Shown: positions 1 through 30,506 of the stretch, in pieces
Position numbering within the stretch: position 1 is the stretch's first letter
Layout of the letters: the number at the start of each line of letters is the position of its first letter
From: a virus
Strand: one strand, 5' to 3'
Length of the DNA: 30,506 nucleotides
IMG/VR virus record: IMGVR_UViG_3300044606_000094
Coordinates: 1 to 30,506 of that record
Translations under genes and position numbers: made by a program
The notes under the pieces: generated by a model
Database searches by the model: none
Told to the model about the DNA's origin: nothing
The model's input: only the letters and a program-made list of their open reading frames with translations

Positions 1-36
1 AATTGCCTATTTTTAGATTTGATGTAAACCTACCAT
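1..36. repeat. Terminal direct repeat, copy 1 (identical to 30471-30506); marks circular assembly or terminal redundancy
   Basis: Exact 36-nt identity between window start and window end, read directly. Confidence 0.9.
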
Positions 37-742
37 TACCATTGACATCTAATTTGTAAGCAGGGGATGTCGTCCCGATGCCGACATTGCCGTTCTGTAA
101 AAGAGCCATGTTTGGAGTATTACCATTTGTAGCGCTTAAAAATCCGAGTGCTCCACTATTACCCTCAAGCTGAATCGAGTATTTTTCTGTTCCCAATGCC
201 CCCTGCACCCCGCTTGTGTTTGTATTAAAGACAAGTGAGTTTCTTGCACTAGTTCCAAACATCCAAGCATCATTGCCATCCATCCTACCTGTAAGCACTA
301 AGTTATTCCTTCCATGAAAAGATGCGTTATTCGTAAAATAAAATCTCCCTGAACCATCAAAATTAGTGCTACCCATTACCTGTAATTGTCCTTGTGGCGT
401 TGTCGTCCCGATGCCAACGTTGCCGTTGTTTAAAACTACCATTGTTGAACCAGCCACTTTAAATAATGGAGCTGTTCCTGTTACTCCTGTCCCAGTTATA
501 TTAACAGATGAAGCATTTATATTATAAGCTGTCACATTTCCATTAACTCCATTCAATAAAATAGAAGGGGAATTGGCCAGAGTGCTTGTTGAAGGATAAA
601 TTTTTAATAACCCTGACAAATATCCTGTTCCATATGCTGTATAAGTTGACGCCTGCGGAGCTAACCAAAAAGGAACGCCAGCATAAATATTTATATTTAT
701 CAATGTCAATATCATCATCATTATTATTTTTTTCATTTTCAT
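1..742 (-). CDS. Tail fibre protein, 5' part (ATG at 740-742; gene runs off the window start and continues at 30470 down to 29773)
   Basis: Minus-strand frame from ATG 742 has no stop down to position 1 (checked codon by codon). RBS GGAGAA upstream. Translation has a signal/anchor-like N-terminus (MKMKKIIMMMILTLI) and repeated NGNVGIGTT(T/S)P motifs typical of fibre shafts. Confidence 0.7.
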   Translation of the reverse strand, partial: MKMKKIIMMMILTLININIYAGVPFWLAPQASTYTAYGTGYLSGLLKIYPSTSTLANSPSILLNGVNGNVTAYNINASSVNITGTGVTGTAPLFKVAGSTMVVLNNGNVGIGTTTPQGQLQVMGSTNFDGSGRFYFTNNASFHGRNNLVLTGRMDGNDAWMFGTSARNSLVFNTNTSGVQGALGTEKYSIQLEGNSGALGFLSATNGNTPNMALLQNGNVGIGTTSPAYKLDVNGNGRFTSNLKIGN

Positions 743-760
743 ATTATTTTCTCCTTATCA

Positions 761-1036
761 TTATGAAATAATTTCCCAGCTTGCTAATGTAACAAAACCA
801 TTACCTTCCGAGCCAGCATTAGCTATCCCTGTATAAAGTAAAAGAGCTCTTAAATCAGTAGGAATGGCAAGGAAAGGTATAGTAGGATTTGCTAATGCAG
901 TTGCTTTTATATTTGCCAATGTTCCTGTTTTAATTGCCTGACCACCAGAAATTAAATTAAATAAATAATCAAAATTTTCTTTTAGTTTTGTCCCATTAGG
1001 ATTTTGTCCGTTAGCAATTGTATGAGGAACTGCCAT
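761..1036 (-). CDS. Small tail/baseplate-associated protein (hypothetical)
   Basis: 91-aa ORF between the distal tail protein and the fibre gene; function from position only. Confidence 0.4.
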   Translation of the reverse strand: MAVPHTIANGQNPNGTKLKENFDYLFNLISGGQAIKTGTLANIKATALANPTIPFLAIPTDLRALLLYTGIANAGSEGNGFVTLASWEIIS

Positions 1037-1038
1037 AA

Positions 1039-3483
1039 TTATACCTCCACCAAATCTAAAGTAGTCATATAGTCATCAGGGGATAATGTAATACCCTCTA
1101 TTCTAAAATCTTTATCCCACATATTATATCTATTTTCTAAATCTTCATCATCATAATATTCAAGGTCAGGCTGACCATAAACTACATCAGTATCGCCCCA
1201 TTTCCATCTTCTTAAAACCAGTGGCTCATCAAAAAATGTTTTTACTTTATCACCCAATTCAAGATGAGGCAAAAACATTGATTCAACTTTACATCTTATT
1301 TTAGGTTCTTTCGTGTAATTCAAAATCGTAGGAGCAACAGCATAAGCCAGATTGACATTATCAGCAGGCAATAATGAGCTTGATGAAATTGAATATTGCC
1401 TATCTCCATATTTGTCAATTGAGTTAGGATGATCGTCCGATGATGCATCAGATACTTTTCTATATATTCCAAATTCAGCTACAACACGATTATATACTCT
1501 ATCTATTCCTAAATCTATACTTTTAACATCAACAATATTATTATCACTTCTCAATTCAATAACAGCAGGGACATTTGTAAAACGAGGTCTATAAATAAAA
1601 GTTTCATCAGCTTTAAAACCAAATTCATAAGCAGGCATCTCGGCTAATTTTTCTAATGCTTGTCTTGATGTCATACCAGTTAAATTAACTAAATCTATAA
1701 GAGTTGTAGAGGTGTAATATGTCAATTTAATTTCGTCAAACACAGGAGTTAAAGGATTTGACAATGATTCTAATGTAGCAGTTACTCTAAACTTCAAATA
1801 TCGTTTAACTGCTGAATTAATTAAGCCAGTTGCTCCAATAGCAACCCAACCAGCAGGATCATTGCCTGTAGAAAAATCTGAGCTATCAGAGCTATAAGTT
1901 TCAAATATTACATTAGCTCCATTTGCTGTATATATCGCATTAAAATCCCCATAGGCAGTTACATCAGAGCCACAATCTTTAACAGGGCTTTCCAAGACGC
2001 CTCTACCTACAGTAGTGCCATTTTCCCAGAAGTAAAAATCATCAAAATAAAATATACGAGTCTGATCTGACCAATAAGCAACATAAGGTATGAGATAAAA
2101 ACCATTAGTAGTATTATGTGTTGTATCAGTTGCAGTCCCTTTTAAAACTTCATTGATGTATAATTTAAAAACACCATTTTCATCCCTTGAAATTCTATAT
2201 ACAAGTTCTATAGAATGATAATATAAATAACTTGTATCAATTAATAAAGTATCTACTCCTGCTGTTCTTTTAAAAAGACGAACCACCACACCCATTGGAC
2301 TTGGATATATAATTATATAATATCCATCATTAGGTTCTTCATTAATACCTGTTTCATTCAATCCTATTATCCATATAGTTAAAGGCATAGCATTATTACT
2401 CCAAGCTTTAAAAATCCAATTACCAGTTGTTTTTTGTAAAGGTAAAAAAAGATTTGGATTATTATCTAAACCCAATGAATTAACTTTCAATATATTTTCA
2501 TTTACTTCCCAACCATCATATTTAACTGTCCATTCAGGATTTTCATCATAATTACCATCTCCAAAATCATCAATCAAACCAATCTTAAAACTACCAGGCG
2601 TTGTAATTGTGTCTATATTAGTTTTAGTGCAAGTATCCCAATCATCTTTGCTATTAAAATCCCAAGTATTTTCAATTGAACTGCTAAATATAGCTGGAGA
2701 TATATCATAATTAGTTATTCCATTCAATATCATTATTTGTTCTACAAGCCACTCTAAAGTCTTATCCTGATACCAATATCTGTAAGAGCAATATAATTTT
2801 TCACCTGCTGTTAATTCGCTTACAAGAGTAATTTTAAGAGGCAGACTTTTTTGATTCAAATCAGATATAGTATAATCTATCTGAGGCTTAATTTCAGTAG
2901 CAGTTTCTAATGTTGTCCCTCTTTTAATATTGATTATTATCCCTACTCCATTATTATCTGTTGTAAATTCTGCTCCTGAATCTTGACCTACCAATTCATC
3001 ATTTACAAGTGTTGATATAGTTTCAGCATTCTTGTTGCCAAATTTTGATATTCCACTTTGAATAACAATATTGCAAGTCTTATTAACTAAATCATAATTC
3101 AAGTCATCAGAGATATAACCAGTAAAACTTTTTAATAATTCAAAACTACCATCAGCAAGTTGTGCACCAAATTTGATAACAATCTTTGAATCAACAACCT
3201 GATAATTACCAGAGAAAAACCCTTTTTCATTTCCCTGCTTCCATTGATTTCTATCATTACGAAAAACAATAGAAGTATTATCAAGTGTCCAAACATTAAA
3301 ACCTTCAGCATCCATCTTCCATCTTATTTCAGACATTTCTTTTACTTCACTTGTTATATCAATAGCTGTATCATAAACGAACGATCCATTTATCCATAAT
3401 TTACGATATAATTCAACAACTTTTTTATAGACAGGATTTTTTCTTTCAAGTGATTTTTTTAATTCGTTAGAAATATCTTGCAT
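1039..3483 (-). CDS. Large distal tail protein (Tal-like tail-tip protein)
   Basis: 814-aa ORF immediately after the Dit-like gene and tape measure, which is the usual siphovirus order; no catalytic motif recognised. Confidence 0.45.
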   Translation of the reverse strand: MQDISNELKKSLERKNPVYKKVVELYRKLWINGSFVYDTAIDITSEVKEMSEIRWKMDAEGFNVWTLDNTSIVFRNDRNQWKQGNEKGFFSGNYQVVDSKIVIKFGAQLADGSFELLKSFTGYISDDLNYDLVNKTCNIVIQSGISKFGNKNAETISTLVNDELVGQDSGAEFTTDNNGVGIIINIKRGTTLETATEIKPQIDYTISDLNQKSLPLKITLVSELTAGEKLYCSYRYWYQDKTLEWLVEQIMILNGITNYDISPAIFSSSIENTWDFNSKDDWDTCTKTNIDTITTPGSFKIGLIDDFGDGNYDENPEWTVKYDGWEVNENILKVNSLGLDNNPNLFLPLQKTTGNWIFKAWSNNAMPLTIWIIGLNETGINEEPNDGYYIIIYPSPMGVVVRLFKRTAGVDTLLIDTSYLYYHSIELVYRISRDENGVFKLYINEVLKGTATDTTHNTTNGFYLIPYVAYWSDQTRIFYFDDFYFWENGTTVGRGVLESPVKDCGSDVTAYGDFNAIYTANGANVIFETYSSDSSDFSTGNDPAGWVAIGATGLINSAVKRYLKFRVTATLESLSNPLTPVFDEIKLTYYTSTTLIDLVNLTGMTSRQALEKLAEMPAYEFGFKADETFIYRPRFTNVPAVIELRSDNNIVDVKSIDLGIDRVYNRVVAEFGIYRKVSDASSDDHPNSIDKYGDRQYSISSSSLLPADNVNLAYAVAPTILNYTKEPKIRCKVESMFLPHLELGDKVKTFFDEPLVLRRWKWGDTDVVYGQPDLEYYDDEDLENRYNMWDKDFRIEGITLSPDDYMTTLDLVEV

Positions 3484-3485
3484 TA

Positions 3486-4247
3486 TTATTTTTCCTCTAA
3501 TGACAACGATAGATTAAATAATCTTTCTTTCCTATTAATATTAAAATTAGGAGCATTTACTATTTGAAACTCATAAATATCAGAAATATTAAAATCTTGA
3601 TAAAATATAACTATTATAAATTCATTCTGTTTCATATAAGGCAATAAAATATTTAGATTGTCCAATGATACATTTTCAATTGATAATTTACCTGATACTT
3701 TTGTCCATTCTTTCCAAGAGACTAATTTACCACCAGCCAATCTATAATCATTACCACGCATAGAATCATTTCTTGAAAAATCACTCAACCATTCAGGCTC
3801 TTCAAGAATTGATTTACAGATTTTTAATTCTCCGATTTGTTTTTCTTGATTAGCTATTTGCGTGGTTTTACAATTTAACCTAATTCTGCTGACAGGAATA
3901 GGAGGAGGTTGTGTAATTTCAATAATTGTGTATGCTTCGTTTTCAATTATCAATCCAGCCCCTGGGATATTAATCCAATCTGTGCCATTGTAATATTCAA
4001 AAGTAACAAATTTTAGATTATGATTTAAAATTATTATTCTATTAAAATCTCTGTTTATTTCCTCACCTTGCCAATTTTTGAAAGTGATATCTATATGCTC
4101 TATTATATTATCATTAGAACCTTCACTTACCCATTTAGTAGCCTGATTTTGGTCAAACAAATAATTTTTAGTAGCAGACCCAGATGTAGGTTCTATACTA
4201 CAATATTCATTTATATAATTTTCACTACATATTTTAATACCGTTCAT
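3486..4247 (-). CDS. Distal tail protein (Dit-like) or minor tail protein
   Basis: 253-aa ORF directly downstream of the tape-measure gene; assignment by position and size. Confidence 0.4.
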   Translation of the reverse strand: MNGIKICSENYINEYCSIEPTSGSATKNYLFDQNQATKWVSEGSNDNIIEHIDITFKNWQGEEINRDFNRIIILNHNLKFVTFEYYNGTDWINIPGAGLIIENEAYTIIEITQPPPIPVSRIRLNCKTTQIANQEKQIGELKICKSILEEPEWLSDFSRNDSMRGNDYRLAGGKLVSWKEWTKVSGKLSIENVSLDNLNILLPYMKQNEFIIVIFYQDFNISDIYEFQIVNAPNFNINRKERLFNLSLSLEEK

Positions 4248-9246: not shown

Positions 9247-9636
9247 TTATCTATAGTGAACATTAAACTGAACAACACTATCTGCATCTGATTTTCTAAA
9301 GCATACATCTGTCACAGATAGAGGAGTATTGTAGAGTGGAAAACTCAAGAATATACTTCTTGAACTTTCACCAGCTGGAATATATCCTCTCCATATCAAA
9401 CTAACTGTAGTCGTAGATGAGCAATTTTTATAAACGCTAACCGTCTGTGCAGTTGTCGTGCTAATATTGAATATAGATATTTGTTCAATAGCTATATTTC
9501 CAGATATATTAGCAGCCATTGTAGCTGCCTCATCAATCGGATAAGTAGAAGCTGCAACGGTATAATCAGTAGCAGAAGCGGATGCTAATGCACTGAAAAC
9601 TCCAAGACAAAATATAAGAGCTATAACCTTTTTCAT
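9247..9636 (-). CDS. Secreted protein with N-terminal signal peptide (possible moron or decoration protein)
   Basis: MKKVIALIFCLGVFSALASASA followed by a Thr/Ser-rich domain; a hairpin (about 9184-9218) follows the gene. Confidence 0.5.
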   Translation of the reverse strand: MKKVIALIFCLGVFSALASASATDYTVAASTYPIDEAATMAANISGNIAIEQISIFNISTTTAQTVSVYKNCSSTTTVSLIWRGYIPAGESSRSIFLSFPLYNTPLSVTDVCFRKSDADSVVQFNVHYR

Positions 9637-16031: not shown

Positions 16032-16298
16032 TTAATTTATTAGTGTGAAAACTATTTTTTCAAAAATACCAGTATAATTTGGATAGAGATTATCATAAAC
16101 CTCCTTCATTTCAGGAGGGATTAAAAATTGTGTCTTATCAATTATTTTTACTTTGGCGAAAGGTGGACGTGGTCCTACTGTTAAAGTAATAATTTCTCCT
16201 ATATTAGGATTTCTGTTACTTTTTTTACGAATAGTATAATTTTTTTCACCTGACAATATTGGTTTAACATATTTCTCTTTGAACCATAAAGATTTCAT
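16032..16298 (-). CDS. ASCH (PUA-like) domain protein
   Basis: 88-aa; KYVKPILSGEKNYTIRK resembles the ASCH core; strong RBS AGGAGG; start overlaps the stop of the upstream gene (ATGA). Confidence 0.55.
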   Translation of the reverse strand: MKSLWFKEKYVKPILSGEKNYTIRKKSNRNPNIGEIITLTVGPRPPFAKVKIIDKTQFLIPPEMKEVYDNLYPNYTGIFEKIVFTLIN

Positions 16299-17377
16299 TT
16301 TCTACCTCCTATATATCTAAATGAAGCCGTAAGTCTCCTAAAAGATGAAATTTTTTTATGCATAATATTATTAGGAGTACAATGTCCTAATCTCCTTAAT
16401 TGCCATTTAGGACTTCTTGAACGATGAAAAATCATAGCAGGATGAGATGTTGTAGATATAAAAATAAATCCTTTTTTAGTTAAATAATTACCTAACCATT
16501 CTGATAATATATTGCCTATTCCAAGCCCCTGATAATCTGGTAAAACTACTGTTCTATGTTCTCTTTTATACTTCATACTTGAAGAATGAGGAAAATGAAT
16601 ATAACTGGTAAAAGCAACTGGTTTATTTTCCCAATAAGCAACAAAACATTGTGCTTGATCCGCTATATCAGCACTTAAATAATGATTTCCTCTAAAAATT
16701 TTCCACATACTTCTATCTGTTTTATAGATTTTGAGTTTAATTTTGGGGCGTCCTTGAAGAGACCTCCAATTAAATTCATTTTTTGTAACATCATAAATCC
16801 AATCAGGTTGTAACCATTCAATAATATCATAATGACAAGATAATAAAACTATTTTTTTATCTGGAAAATTTTTACGAAAAACTTTTTGAAGACAATGAGA
16901 TACTGTTTTTGCAACATCTCTATCTATAACAGAAGTAAATTCATCTATTACTATATTCTTATATTCGCTTAATATAACTCGCACCAAATCTACCCTAAAT
17001 TTTTGTCCATTTGAAAGTGTATGCCAAGATTTAAGCCACGCTACTGGAGAACTTAAACCAATATTATTTAATACTTCTATAATTTTTTTTATTGGAATAT
17101 CTTTATTAAAATCATTTAAAAAAGAATCATCTTTTTTCCATTTAAATCCTGTTATCATTTTAAAATCTTTAAAAATCTCAGAAGCAATAACTGTTTTACC
17201 TGAACCTGAATTACCAACAATTAATCCTATATTCCATTTTTTATTTTCTAATGGCAATGAAACATCCCATTCGTGTTTTACTTCAGTCATATTAGGAATA
17301 TCAAATATTCCAATTACACTATCAACTCTATAACTCTTTTTCACTGGAGTGGTTCTTACAATGTGATAATTCGGCAT
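16295..17377 (-). CDS. ABC-type ATPase domain fused to a GNAT-like acyltransferase domain
   Basis: Walker A GNSGSGKT, ABC signature-like LSNGQKFRVDLVRVIL, Walker B IVIDEF, H-loop-like LLSCHYD; C-terminal VVLPDYQGLGIGNILSEWL resembles GNAT motif A. Confidence 0.55.
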   Translation of the reverse strand: MPNYHIVRTTPVKKSYRVDSVIGIFDIPNMTEVKHEWDVSLPLENKKWNIGLIVGNSGSGKTVIASEIFKDFKMITGFKWKKDDSFLNDFNKDIPIKKIIEVLNNIGLSSPVAWLKSWHTLSNGQKFRVDLVRVILSEYKNIVIDEFTSVIDRDVAKTVSHCLQKVFRKNFPDKKIVLLSCHYDIIEWLQPDWIYDVTKNEFNWRSLQGRPKIKLKIYKTDRSMWKIFRGNHYLSADIADQAQCFVAYWENKPVAFTSYIHFPHSSSMKYKREHRTVVLPDYQGLGIGNILSEWLGNYLTKKGFIFISTTSHPAMIFHRSRSPKWQLRRLGHCTPNNIMHKKISSFRRLTASFRYIGGRK

Positions 17378-27979: not shown

Positions 27980-28008
27980 ATTATAGCAGATTACTATTTA
28001 TTTTCAAT
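27980..28008 (-). promoter_or_regulatory. Sigma70-type promoter P7 (TTGAAA, 16 bp, TATAAT)
   Basis: -35 at 28002-28007, -10 at 27980-27985; near-duplicate of the P6 block. Confidence 0.5.
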
Positions 28009-28248
28009 GTTAGTTTTATTTAGTTTATCATTTATAATCTGCTCAACCTTCGCAAAGAACTCATCATCTTTTGTTGACTTTGTGGCTTTAACAATAGCCC
28101 TTGCCAGCGTATATACACCTGCAAGTATGCCTGTTATGATAGCAACAGTCTGCGGTGGTATCATACCACTCAATGCCTGCCATAATACAATACCTATGCT
28201 TAACGCAGTTAACCAGAACTCACTCGTTTTTACTCCTGATTTTTCCAT
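27994..28248 (-). CDS. Holin (two transmembrane segments); start revised to ATG at 28248 (MEKSGVKTSEFW...)
   Basis: Hydrophobic helices FWLTALSIGIVLWQALSG and TVAIITGILAGVYTLARAIV followed by a charged C-terminus; RBS AAGGAGG 8 nt before the internal ATG. Confidence 0.55.
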   Translation of the reverse strand: MEKSGVKTSEFWLTALSIGIVLWQALSGMIPPQTVAIITGILAGVYTLARAIVKATKSTKDDEFFAKVEQIINDKLNKTNIENK

Positions 28249-28318
28249 ATTATTAACCTCCTTCTTAACTTTTAGAAATGTTCTAAATAAATTATATATT
28301 TGTTTTATACTCATAATA

Positions 28319-28867
28319 TCATCTCCTTTTAAATAAATCAATTTCAAATCGTGGGGCATTTCCTTTTAGCCACCCAACCTGAAACCATCTTTTAAATAGA
28401 TAAAATTCTAAGTAGTATCTATTGCCATTTGTGTATTCTCTCAATTCCCATCTATATCCTTTCTTATCTTTACATAATGTAGCAAAATCTTGCTTACCGC
28501 CCGATTTTATTATTTTTATAAATTTACCTAAATTATAAGCAGAATAATTATTCCAATTGACCATCGCATTGCGTATAGCGTTGAAATAATAACTTAATAT
28601 AAACTCATTATGCCATTTCCAAATCCAAGAGGGATAATAACCTTCCTTGTTAGCATACTCAACCCCATATGTCATAAGCTCGCTATCATTCAAAAAGAAA
28701 TATAATGGCTTAAATTTTGGCTCATATAAATATCCTTCCCATAATATCTTATTGTAGTTCCTTAATTTATGCCTAAATAAATAAGCAATAGGATATATGA
28801 GAGGAGCTAATATGTCCTTTATGAGAGAAAACAATATATACCCTATAAATATTAGTTTTTCTTTCAC
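28319..28867 (-). CDS. Membrane-anchored Trp/Tyr-rich protein of unknown function
   Basis: N-terminal transmembrane helix (LIFIGYILFSLIKDILAPLIYPIAYLF) then aromatic-rich domain; GTG start after RBS AGGAGAAG. Confidence 0.45.
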   Translation of the reverse strand: MKEKLIFIGYILFSLIKDILAPLIYPIAYLFRHKLRNYNKILWEGYLYEPKFKPLYFFLNDSELMTYGVEYANKEGYYPSWIWKWHNEFILSYYFNAIRNAMVNWNNYSAYNLGKFIKIIKSGGKQDFATLCKDKKGYRWELREYTNGNRYYLEFYLFKRWFQVGWLKGNAPRFEIDLFKRR

Positions 28868-29340
28868 GATACTTCTCCTAAATCAAATATCTCTGGCATC
28901 TCGCCAAACGCCCAATTTAGCCCCATCACAGCATTTTCCTTGCCTATATTACAAACTAATGGCACATAACAATTCCATTTACCTGTATAAACTTTTGACC
29001 TGCTGGGATAGATTACAGCGATATGACCATGCCCATCAATATTCTTTTGTGATGCTACAAATATTTTAGGCACATAAAAATCAGCATGTATATCAACCTT
29101 CGGATACTTTGCTTTTAACACATCATACATCTCATTTGCCATCATCATCCTACCAAGTTGTTTATTCCAAAAATCTGATTGTTTACCTAATTCATTAAGT
29201 ATCATATACACACCCACATTACAATATGTTATACTATTTGCTCCATTCATATCCTTTTTGAATAGGTTAGCGTCTGCCAAAGTCTTGTGGCATGCTAACA
29301 ATATTTTTTGTAGTTTTAAGTCGTTGTTTTCAATAGCCAT
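28864..29340 (-). CDS. Putative cell-wall hydrolase / endolysin candidate (papain-like Cys/His motifs?)
   Basis: Sits in the lysis cassette; ITYCNVGVYMI and GHGHIAVIY loosely resemble NlpC/P60 or CHAP Cys and His motifs; weak assignment. Confidence 0.3.
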   Translation of the reverse strand: MAIENNDLKLQKILLACHKTLADANLFKKDMNGANSITYCNVGVYMILNELGKQSDFWNKQLGRMMMANEMYDVLKAKYPKVDIHADFYVPKIFVASQKNIDGHGHIAVIYPSRSKVYTGKWNCYVPLVCNIGKENAVMGLNWAFGEMPEIFDLGEVS

Positions 29341-29772
29341 TTATTGTCTCTTCTCTAATGTTTCAATAATGTAATAAGACGTTCATTATCTATTATGTCG
29401 TATACTTCTTTGAATGAAAAAGTATGCCCAGTTGCCAAGAATAAACATATGTTTTTCTTATTATTATTTTTCTGCATTGATACCTCCTAATGTATTATTT
29501 CTCTTATTATCCTCATACTCATCTTCGTAAGAAATTCTATATCCATTAACACATTACTTCTTATGCTATGTCTTGCAGTATAAGCAAAAGGATAAAGCAA
29601 GGCGGATATTGTTCTTTTAATTGGCTCAATTACCAAAAATAAAATAATCATATATTATAACTCCTTTCGCCAATCAAATTTATACTTGCTTTTGTCTTTT
29701 TTGCTTTTAATAATTCTTATGTATGTTTTTATAGCGTCTTTTTTTCTTATTTTAATTTTCATAGTTTATTAG

Positions 29773-30506
29773 TTAAAATATTCTTGTAACCGCAAAATAG
29801 CTAAAAATTGGACGAAGCACTAAATTGCTTCCAACAGTATATTTAACAAAAGTTTCTATATAATCATTTACATTAAGACAAGCAGGAACTGCCACGCCAA
29901 AAGTAAGCCCGCCATGTGCGTTTGGCCCACTTGTACTCCCTTCTTGATATATGAGACCATTTATATTAAGTGCTAAAAACTTATCTGACACTGTGCCATC
30001 CCCACCCTTAAATAAATTAGCATTAACTGTAATTAAATAACACCCGTTTTGCGTAACAATATATTTATCGTTTGTTGTGTCATAATATCCATTTTTGTTA
30101 ATAATTATGTTATCCCAATCAACCTTATAATAAGTATTATCCGCTGGTAATGTTTGCTCCGAACTCCTTTTAGCAAAAAACACTGCTCCGTTATATGATA
30201 AAATTCCATTAGTAGTTATATTTACAATATACCCGTCGCTTGAATTACTATTACTATCAATAGTCAAAGCATACTGCTGGCTTGAATTGGCATTAATTGT
30301 TATACTTGAATTAAATACACTGTTATTCTGATATTTATTCTGCCCAGTCCAAGTTTGAGTAGCAGATAACACAGCATCACCGCCACCAGCAGGACTACCC
30401 CAAGATACAGTTCCTGAACCATTTGTTTTTAGGAATTGACCATTTGACCCATCAGCGGTTGGTAGTGTATAATTGCCTATTTTTAGATTTGATGTAAACC
30501 TACCAT
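29773..30506 (-). CDS. Tail fibre protein, 3' part with C-terminal C1q/TNF-like globular domain (in frame with 1-742 across the circular junction)
   Basis: Frame stays open from 30468 to the listed ORF at 30372 (checked). C-terminal sequence YKVDWDNIIINKNGYYD...KYIVTQNGCYLITVNA resembles a C1q-type jelly-roll head. The listed start at 30372 is a GTG inside the open frame. Confidence 0.65.
   Translation of the reverse strand, partial: GRFTSNLKIGNYTLPTADGSNGQFLKTNGSGTVSWGSPAGGGDAVLSATQTWTGQNKYQNNSVFNSSITINANSSQQYALTIDSNSNSSDGYIVNITTNGILSYNGAVFFAKRSSEQTLPADNTYYKVDWDNIIINKNGYYDTTNDKYIVTQNGCYLITVNANLFKGGDGTVSDKFLALNINGLIYQEGSTSGPNAHGGLTFGVAVPACLNVNDYIETFVKYTVGSNLVLRPIFSYFAVTRIF
30471..30506. repeat. 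Terminal direct repeat, copy 2 (identical to 1-36)
   Basis: Exact 36-nt identity with 1-36; repeat may extend beyond the window edge. Confidence 0.9.

Follow-up and report, generated by a model that had tools for sequence, protein, structure and literature searches.

The stretch of DNA analyzed here (the window) is the whole of the 30,506-nt virus record IMGVR_UViG_3300044606_000094 of IMG/VR and is a ~30.47-kb genome of a siphovirus-like phage. The protein encoded across its two ends, 479 amino acids (aa) in length, is probably the distal tail fibre and host-recognition protein of a small siphovirus-like phage, assembled as a mosaic of exchangeable modules. This reading is based on the position of the gene, matches to tail-fibre families in PHROG, swapping of the C-terminal head at the stalk that carries it, and an excess of amino-acid-changing substitutions in the head. 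It agrees with a first-pass annotation, made from the sequence alone, which had regarded the product as a likely receptor-binding tail fibre. Since the window begins and ends with the same 36 bases, the contig is circular, or was circularly assembled, with a length of 30470 bp. As the annotation had proposed, the fibre gene wraps around the contig ends: a single minus-strand open reading frame (ORF) reads through the 36-nt overlap junction, from an ATG at 742 to base 1 and onward from 30470 to 29773. The interval to which the annotation had assigned the whole protein, 29773-30470, does encode its C-terminal 232 codons and stop codon, but the hydrophobic N-terminus and both NGNVGIGTT motifs fall in 1-742.

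The fibre gene is the last gene of a siphovirus-type tail module, following the gene for the tape measure protein and ORFs of 253, 814, and 91 aa. The protein matched the tail-fibre families phrog_9942 (E 9.6e-7) and phrog_18345 (E 5.4e-5). When the GenBank phage collection was searched by tblastn, the only matches were tail fibres of Pelagibacter phages (31% identity, E 6e-5), and a scan of IMG/VR returned a single, weak relative. A protein with the same stalk, P0013, is encoded at the equivalent position of another 30-kb phage contig, after a tape-measure-sized gene and the gene of a 1030-aa tail protein.

Judged by sequence profiles and a predicted structure, the last 139 residues of the protein form a domain of the C1q/TNF jelly-roll superfamily. 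The annotation had pointed to a C1q/TNF-like head on account of the pattern V.WDNII.N.NGYYD...KY.V, which we located at residues 363-398 (KVDWDNIIINKNGYYDTTNDKYIVTQNGCYLITVNA), and the proposal was borne out by profile searches, by structure prediction, and by comparison with known C1q-like phage fibres. The top Pfam match of the fibre was C1q (PF00386), with 20.3 bits for the whole protein (E 7e-4) and 22.4 bits for the head alone (E 1.6e-4); the alignment covered the N-terminal half of the model only (positions 2-56 of 127). A single-sequence search of the PDB found C1QTNF5 and C1QL2/3 only at E ~0.01. An exhaustive HMMER search of 1.84 billion representative proteins recovered 96 relatives of the head at E<=1e-3, the best of the remote ones at 6e-16. 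A word-indexed homologue search with the head alone gave no match and missed even the 85%-identical protein P0001, which reflects the index and not a true absence of relatives. In an alignment of 63 head-family domains (the head and 62 relatives), individual domains matched C1q (43, at E<=0.01), BclA_C (15), or TNF (3) in Pfam. The profile of this family reached solved gC1q domains at far lower E-values, namely C1QL2 (2.8e-15), collagen X (8e-13), C1QTNF5 (6.5e-10), and the C1q C chain (3e-9), and also matched two phage proteins, ORF58 of phi812 (4e-9) and the tail fibre of cyanophage A4 (1e-3).

The structure of the head was predicted with AlphaFold2 for residues 278-479, using the head-family alignment as input. 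The head in this model was all-beta, with a predicted local distance difference test (pLDDT) score of >90 (86-98 across its length), and contained the ten canonical C1q strands (strand H being split in two, and minor bridges ignored). In Foldseek searches the predicted jelly roll superposed on C1QL3 and C1QL1 (E 4.6e-9; target-normalised template modelling (TM) score 0.80-0.83; root-mean-square deviation (rmsd) 2.2-2.4 Å; probability 1.00), and over C1QL1/2/3 together the TM score was 0.77-0.83 and the rmsd 2.2-3.5 Å. Other solved matches were C1QTNF5, cerebellin, caprin-2, the collagen X NC1 domain, C1q, and the TNF-family protein EDA. Among phage structures, the model matched the knob of the phi812 central spike (9eul) and the fibre tips of cyanophages A-1(L) (8ke9) and A4 (9k09). 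In BFVD, 622 viral models shared the fold at E<=1e-3, many of them named 'C1q domain containing protein [uncultured Caudovirales phage]' or tail fibre.

The shaft below the head is of a different kind. Two copies of the motif (L)NNGNVGIGTT(T/S)P described by the annotation were present, LNNGNVGIGTTTP at residues 104-116 (bases 395-433) and LQNGNVGIGTTSP at residues 215-227, the second with Q where N had been given. The columns of the second motif are nearly invariant in the homologue alignment, and the chance expectation for an extra exact copy of NGNVGIGTT, calculated from composition, was 5e-7. The closest solved match to the shaft by sequence was Bd2133 of Bdellovibrio (8ond; phmmer E 1.2e-4), with the GN(V/L)GIGT motifs of the two proteins aligned. 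A full-length AlphaFold model showed a helix at residues 3-15, low confidence at 16-60, and a confident domain at ~100-245 (means of ten-residue pLDDT blocks, 72-97); the head was poor in this model, the alignment for which contained no head relatives. When the shaft was submitted to Foldseek, the only solved matches were beta-helix domains of Bdellovibrio mosaic adhesive trimer (MAT) fibres (Bd2133, Bd3182, Bd1334, and Bd2439; E 9e-6 to 1e-3), with a target-normalised TM score of 0.63-0.70 against the beta-helix of Bd3182. Because only these structures match the shaft, the two NGNVGIGTT motifs are, according to the models, the boundaries of one MAT-type beta-helix domain. The neck that follows it contains the segment TLPTADGSNGQFLKTNGSGTVSWGSP (residues 249-274); the annotation had noted this segment as GxxGxxG-rich, which was overstated, as the region holds one GxxG only (255-260).

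In order to define the modules, the fibre was cut into pieces and each was searched against the 120 best full-length homologues, and each piece was found to have its own set of relatives. The N-terminal module (residues 1-66) and the head (341-479) each occurred in 1/120, in both cases P0001. The first repeat module (67-115) was present in 45/120, the middle domain (116-228) in 97/120, the neck (229-277) in 21/120, and the stalk (278-340) in 7/120. The best matches of the middle domain were two metagenomic proteins with 68-72% identity, followed by proteins of Pedobacter, Chitinophaga, Chitinophagaceae, and Parcubacteria with 56-64%. P0001, encoded by contig L001, is the nearest relative of the fibre and keeps its N-terminus, neck, stalk, and head, and its middle is wholly different and repeat-rich. 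At residues ~67-240 of P0001, unrelated Gly/Asn-rich repeats (...NTFIGNYAGHSNTTGNRNTANGEAALYSNTTG...) take the place of the middle with the MAT-type beta-helix (residues 67-228 of the window protein), so that two fibres that are nearly identical elsewhere have exchanged this module. A 'NASSINITGTGV...VVLNNGNVGIGTT' module was also observed in large proteins, of up to 1328 aa, on metagenome contigs L010, L013, L015, L022, L026, and L027. Their leaders end in cysteine (e.g., MKKIFLASFVFIIFFSLFGYC, followed by DNN) and are possibly lipoprotein signals; such large, leader-bearing proteins may be bacterial cell-surface fibres from the same habitats that swap modules with the phage fibre.

The stalk, GDAVLSATQTWTG...QQYAL.ID.N.N.SDGY, carries different heads in different proteins. 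In P0011 the common stalk is joined to a different C1q-like head (70.6 bits against the head-family profile), and in P0013, P0015, P0019, and P0023 it is followed by sequences without a profile match. Codons of the window were compared with those of L001, the only close relative. The N-terminal module (alignable residues 3-66, which include part of the signal-like stretch) had a synonymous divergence (dS) of 0.38 and a ratio of nonsynonymous to synonymous divergence (dN/dS) of 0.04; the corresponding values were 0.62 and 0.15 for the neck, 0.52 and 0.14 for the stalk, and, downstream of the fibre gene, 0.43 and 0.07 for the 158-aa ORF and 0.68 and 0.08 for the 182-aa ORF. For the head, dS was 0.035 and dN/dS 2.1. 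Synonymous differences were almost gone from about codon 315 onward, and of the codons that differ within 355-479, 21 are changed nonsynonymously and 1 synonymously (p=6e-7 by a Fisher test with codons 215-314 as reference). If evolution were neutral, <=1 synonymous among 24 changes would have a probability of 0.02, and only 2/24 nucleotide changes in these codons lay at third positions (p=0.005). The collapse of synonymous differences, together with the 21:1 ratio of codon changes, points to a head cassette that was recently common to the window and L001 lineages, with one breakpoint in the stalk and its end at the stop codon, and that appears since to have gained almost only amino-acid changes. 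Such a pattern would fit a diversifying receptor-binding tip. The changed residues cluster at 401-408, 426-436, 457-460, and 469-470, and the first three clusters would correspond to the C-D, E-F, and G-H loops, at the opposite end of the domain from its N- and C-termini. A tendency of the substitutions to avoid beta-strands was not significant (9/81 strand versus 12/58 non-strand residues, p=0.15).

If the protein is a distal tail fibre, three chains would form a homotrimeric fibre that docks to the baseplate through residues 22-66, possibly by way of the 91-aa protein encoded next to it. Docking by this segment is suggested by its strong purifying selection and by its ~90% conservation, together with the 91-aa protein, in the related phage L009. 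The trimeric head would then bind a molecule of the host surface; by the example of C1q/TNF-like lectins and phage tips, a glycan is the most likely ligand, and contact would be made by the C-D, E-F, and G-H loops at the stalk-distal end of the head. A glycan is proposed by analogy with the TNF-like tip of Bd2439, one of the MAT fibres with TNF/C1q-like tips reported to bind N-acetylglucosamine (GlcNAc) (PMC10769870), and with the C1q-domain proteins that have been proposed as receptor-binding proteins in pelagiphages (PMC3909814). Specificity could shift in two ways, by whole-head swaps at the SDGY junction and by point substitutions in the three loops.

A number of observations weigh against the tail-fibre reading or parts of it. 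The head does not reach the C1q gathering threshold of 23.7 bits, and the AlphaFold model of the head was built on C1q-like relatives, so that the evidence from fold and from sequence is not fully independent. The signal of selection comes from two sequences only, and a dN/dS above 1 is, taken alone, only nominally significant (p=0.02). The assignment of changed residues to loops follows the predicted strand order and the canonical C1q topology rather than coordinates. A signal-like N-terminus is unexpected on a protein that is assembled onto virions in the cytoplasm. Finally, in L009 the baseplate proteins of 253 and 814 aa have diverged far more than the proteins around them, and their influence on host range may equal or exceed that of the fibre.

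The last of these observations leads to a possible though less favoured alternative, in which the protein is a fibre of the virion but acts as an accessory adhesin for reversible first contact, with specificity coming mainly from the two baseplate proteins. In comparison with L009 (6484-9662 against window 1039-4247, minus strand), the 253- and 814-aa proteins are only 45-50% identical, as opposed to 87-96% for the major tail protein, the tape measure protein, the 91-aa protein (90%), and the fibre N-terminus, and the 253-aa protein has a weak match to the F5/8 type C (discoidin, sugar-binding) family (E 0.0024). Neither protein, however, had a function-assigning match in PHROG or Pfam, nor anything useful in sequence searches of the PDB, and it is the fibre head that has the patterns of exchange and substitution of a specificity determinant; the two roles are, moreover, compatible. 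A more distant alternative, which we consider unlikely, takes up the N-terminus and places the protein outside the virion altogether, as a Sec-exported surface fibre serving as an adhesin, a decoy, or a superinfection-exclusion factor on the envelope of the infected or lysogenic cell. The hydrophobic N-terminus reported by the annotation is indeed present and consists of an MKMKK n-region, a hydrophobic core of 10-15 residues (a 15-aa stretch with a Kyte-Doolittle (KD) mean of 2.09), and a possible cleavage site IYA/G, so that n-, h-, and c-regions all resemble those of a signal peptide; the N-terminus of just one other ORF among the 45 is more hydrophobic. The protein contains two cysteines only, C391 and C445, which are located at matching ends of strands that neighbour each other in the canonical C1q topology and which also occur together in P0001 and in P0136, an unrelated member of the family. 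The pair hints at a C391-C445 disulfide, a bond normally formed outside the cytoplasm. The plan of the protein (leader, GNVGIGT beta-helix, TNF/C1q-like tip) is also that of the surface-displayed MAT fibres, many of its relatives on metagenome contigs start with signal- or lipoprotein-like leaders, and accessory (moron) genes often end tail modules. On the other hand, the gene lies at the usual tail-fibre site of a co-directional structural operon with its own strong ribosome-binding site, and PHROG tail-fibre families match its product. The very strong purifying selection on residues 3-66 and their conservation together with the 91-aa protein fit a docking module, and receptor-binding proteins typically undergo head swapping and diversifying substitution. 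A search of the literature on tail fibres with signal peptides found nothing relevant. A related scheme, in which the fibre is exported by Sec, loses its leader, folds and forms the C391-C445 disulfide outside the cytoplasm, and then joins tail tips after lysis or coats the infected cell, appears equally improbable. If it were true, the fibre would be a phage-borne counterpart of the predator's MAT fibres, with modules common to the surface fibres of its host.

Two further explanations were rejected. The annotation had likened the head to BclA-like bacterial proteins, and a collagenous, BclA-like surface filament of the Bacillus exosporium type, carried by the phage, can be imagined in view of the 15/63 head-family domains that match BclA_C and of Bacillus 'exosporium leader peptide' proteins within the same family. 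The likeness holds at the level of the head superfamily and no further: the head itself has no BclA_C (PF18573) match, the shaft is a MAT-type beta-helix, and the 479 aa contain no collagen-like G-x-y repeat region and no run of more than three triplets, the three-triplet G-x-x runs being confined to residues 178-186 and 194-202, both inside the beta-helix domain. We therefore regard such a filament as very improbable. Even less credible is an origin of the head as the variable region of a diversity-generating retroelement (DGR). In codons 355-479, 22/24 nucleotide differences fall at positions 1 and 2, as they do at the AAY codons of DGR targets, but adenine was present in either sequence at only 15/23 differing sites. 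The genome holds no second copy of the head DNA that could serve as template repeat (longest similarity 35 nt, 74% identity, E 0.03), no reverse transcriptase was found among the larger ORFs, and the fold is C1q-like and not that of the usual C-type-lectin target.

The distal tail fibre proposed here can be compared with several known systems. As in the short tail fibre CBD of A-1(L), the A4 fibre, the phi812 knob, and the C1q proteins of pelagiphages, a C-terminal C1q/TNF tip caps a fibre or spike whose gene closes a tail module. The folds of the solved phage tips matched the window head at E 9e-9 to 1e-7, with an identity of only 14-18%, and for phi812 and A4 the head-family profile found the match by sequence as well. 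The window fibre differs from these proteins in its shaft, a MAT-type beta-helix between NGNVGIGTT motifs, and in its Sec-signal-like N-terminus. The C1q domains of phages are reported to be highly variable, and C1q proteins of pelagiphages were predicted by Mizuno et al. 2014 (PMC3909814). A plan similar to that of the window fibre is found in the MAT fibres of Bdellovibrio bacteriovorus, with a beta-helix and a TNF/C1q-like tip in Bd2439 and Bd2734 and a beta-helix in Bd2133 and Bd3182; common to both are a leader, a beta-helix bounded by GN(V/L)GIGT motifs, and an interchangeable tip that can be TNF/C1q-like. The tips of MAT fibres are diverse and mosaic (Caulton et al. 2024, PMC10769870), and they are not close in sequence to that of the window fibre. 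MAT proteins are ~1000 aa in length, chromosomally encoded, and carried on a predatory bacterium, whereas the window fibre has 479 aa and a single beta-helix and is encoded in a phage tail module.

The best structural matches of the head were metazoan gC1q domains (C1QL1-3, C1QTNF5, cerebellin, adiponectin, and collagen X NC1; target-normalised TM 0.75-0.83 and rmsd 2.2-3.4 Å over ~141 columns). Homology to these domains is evident at the level of profiles, with the common signature ..F(D)..I.N.(N)G.YD...G.F....G.Y.F, but identity is 18-20%, the Pfam gathering score is missed, and the window protein has no collagen stalk and a viral setting. BclA of Bacillus and other bacterial C1q-like proteins share the head superfamily; the window fibre lacks their collagen-like repeats, exosporium leader, and BclA_C match. 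C1q-like tips of phage fibres are already common, as solved structures (8ke9, 9k09, 9eul), the literature, and hundreds of viral models attest, and C1q-like tips on fibres of extracellular contractile injection systems (eCIS) have likewise been documented. What is known of such tips is thus unchanged by the present fibre, and the one new question it raises concerns the Sec-like leader on a tail fibre. Its interest lies in its compact mosaic structure with clear module boundaries, the substitution pattern of its head, and that leader. It offers an example of how an uncultured phage may build and vary its host-recognition fibre, by joining a MAT-type shaft, previously solved only in Bdellovibrio, to a C1q-like tip, with a recombination junction visible in the stalk and tip loops that bear signs of diversifying selection. 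The analysis should aid the annotation of many 'hypothetical' fibre proteins with NGNVGIGTT motifs, and the module boundaries could be used for swaps of receptor-binding domains.

The annotation had suggested that the head might point to host range; the head alone does not identify the host. Weak pointers from sequence lead toward Elusimicrobiales: the capsid protein of the window shares 49% identity with one encoded on a 5.7-kb contig that was binned as Elusimicrobiales, and one relative of a fibre module comes from an Elusimicrobiales metagenome-assembled genome. An AGGAG-type ribosome-binding motif precedes 26/45 ORFs in the window, and frequent Shine-Dalgarno motifs of this kind would suggest a host outside the Bacteroidota. 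The similarity of the beta-helix domain to proteins of Pedobacter, Chitinophaga, and Chitinophagaceae (55-63% identity) contrasts with this pointer.

Table 1. Positions in the window of the fibre gene's modules, signals, and adjoining features, in the direction of transcription (residue numbers refer to the 479-aa fibre).
Feature	Position	Strand	Remarks
91-aa ORF	761..1036	-	directly upstream of fibre; conserved together with fibre N-terminus
Shine-Dalgarno AAGGAG	751..756	-	8 nt 5' of fibre ATG
Signal-peptide-like N-terminus, residues 1-21	680..742	-	MKMKK + IIMMMILTLININIY + A/G (slash, possible cleavage); KD 2.09; predicted helix 3-15
Conserved N-terminal module, residues 22-66	545..679	-	common only to P0001 and L009; low pLDDT as monomer
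First repeat module, residues 67-115, NASSVNITGTGV...PLFKVAGSTMVVLNNGNVGIGTT	398..544	-	holds first motif minus its last residue
Beta-helix domain of Bdellovibrio MAT-fibre type (predicted), residues 116-214	101..397	-	phmmer, Foldseek, homologue identity
Second motif LQNGNVGIGTTSP, residues 215-227	62..100	-	
Neck, first part, residues 228-248 (first base of codon 248)	1..61	-	up to contig junction
Neck, remainder, residues 248-277, including TLPTADGSNGQFLKTNGSGTVSWGSP	30382..30470	-	low model confidence
Stalk, residues 278-340, GDAVLSATQTWTG...QQYALTIDSNSNSSDGYIVNITTNG	30193..30381	-	conserved junction of head exchange
C1q/TNF-like jelly-roll head (predicted), residues 341-479 (139 aa)	29776..30192	-	putative receptor-binding tip
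Fibre stop codon	29773..29775	-	
Terminal duplicate of bases 1-36	30471..30506	.	marks circular or circularly assembled contig

All genes of the window lie on the minus strand (Table 1 gives those features that adjoin or make up the fibre gene). PHROG matches identified the large terminase, portal, HK97-type major capsid protein, major tail protein, and tape measure protein, as well as a head-tail adaptor, a Neck1/tail completion protein, a tail terminator, and a tail assembly chaperone, and a prohead protease was recognized by its match to Peptidase_S78 in Pfam. The 91-aa protein, for which no Pfam, PHROG, or PDB match was found, is a candidate adaptor or partner of the fibre. Additional or primary roles in host recognition are possible for the 253- and 814-aa proteins. 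Within the head/connector block, a 129-aa ORF (9247-9636, minus strand) opens with a classic Sec signal peptide (MKKVIALIFCLGVFSALASA/SA; KD 2.74); neither Pfam nor PHROG gave a match for this ORF, which encodes the second signal-peptide-like protein of the structural module.

Downstream of the fibre gene are the 158-aa ORF, the membrane-like 182-aa ORF, and a 121-aa ORF (27994-28359) that matches a holin weakly. The ~430 bp between the fibre stop codon and the 158-aa gene (29341-29772) are missing in L001, in which the 158-aa gene begins 16 nt from the fibre stop codon. This segment contains a 54-aa ORF (29487-29651, minus strand), probably a remnant of a second copy; over 32 aa its N-terminus is 34% identical (E 2e-6) to the N-terminus of the 182-aa ORF. 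The 182-aa protein itself (28319-28867, minus strand) has a hydrophobic N-terminus and no family match. Homologues of it with 36-38% identity are encoded directly 3' of the fibre gene in otherwise different phage contigs (L002 12054-12560, L003, L005, and L008), a conserved pairing with the fibre; candidate roles for it are those of an assembly factor, a lysis protein, or a membrane protein. The 158-aa ORF (28864-29340, minus strand) has no family match and is 94% identical in L001; from its position beside the weak holin match, it may be an endolysin of an unrecognised type. In a 360-aa ORF (16295-17377, minus strand), a P-loop/ABC-like ATPase region is fused to a C-terminal GNAT acetyltransferase domain, which is an unusual arrangement for a gene beside the terminase region.

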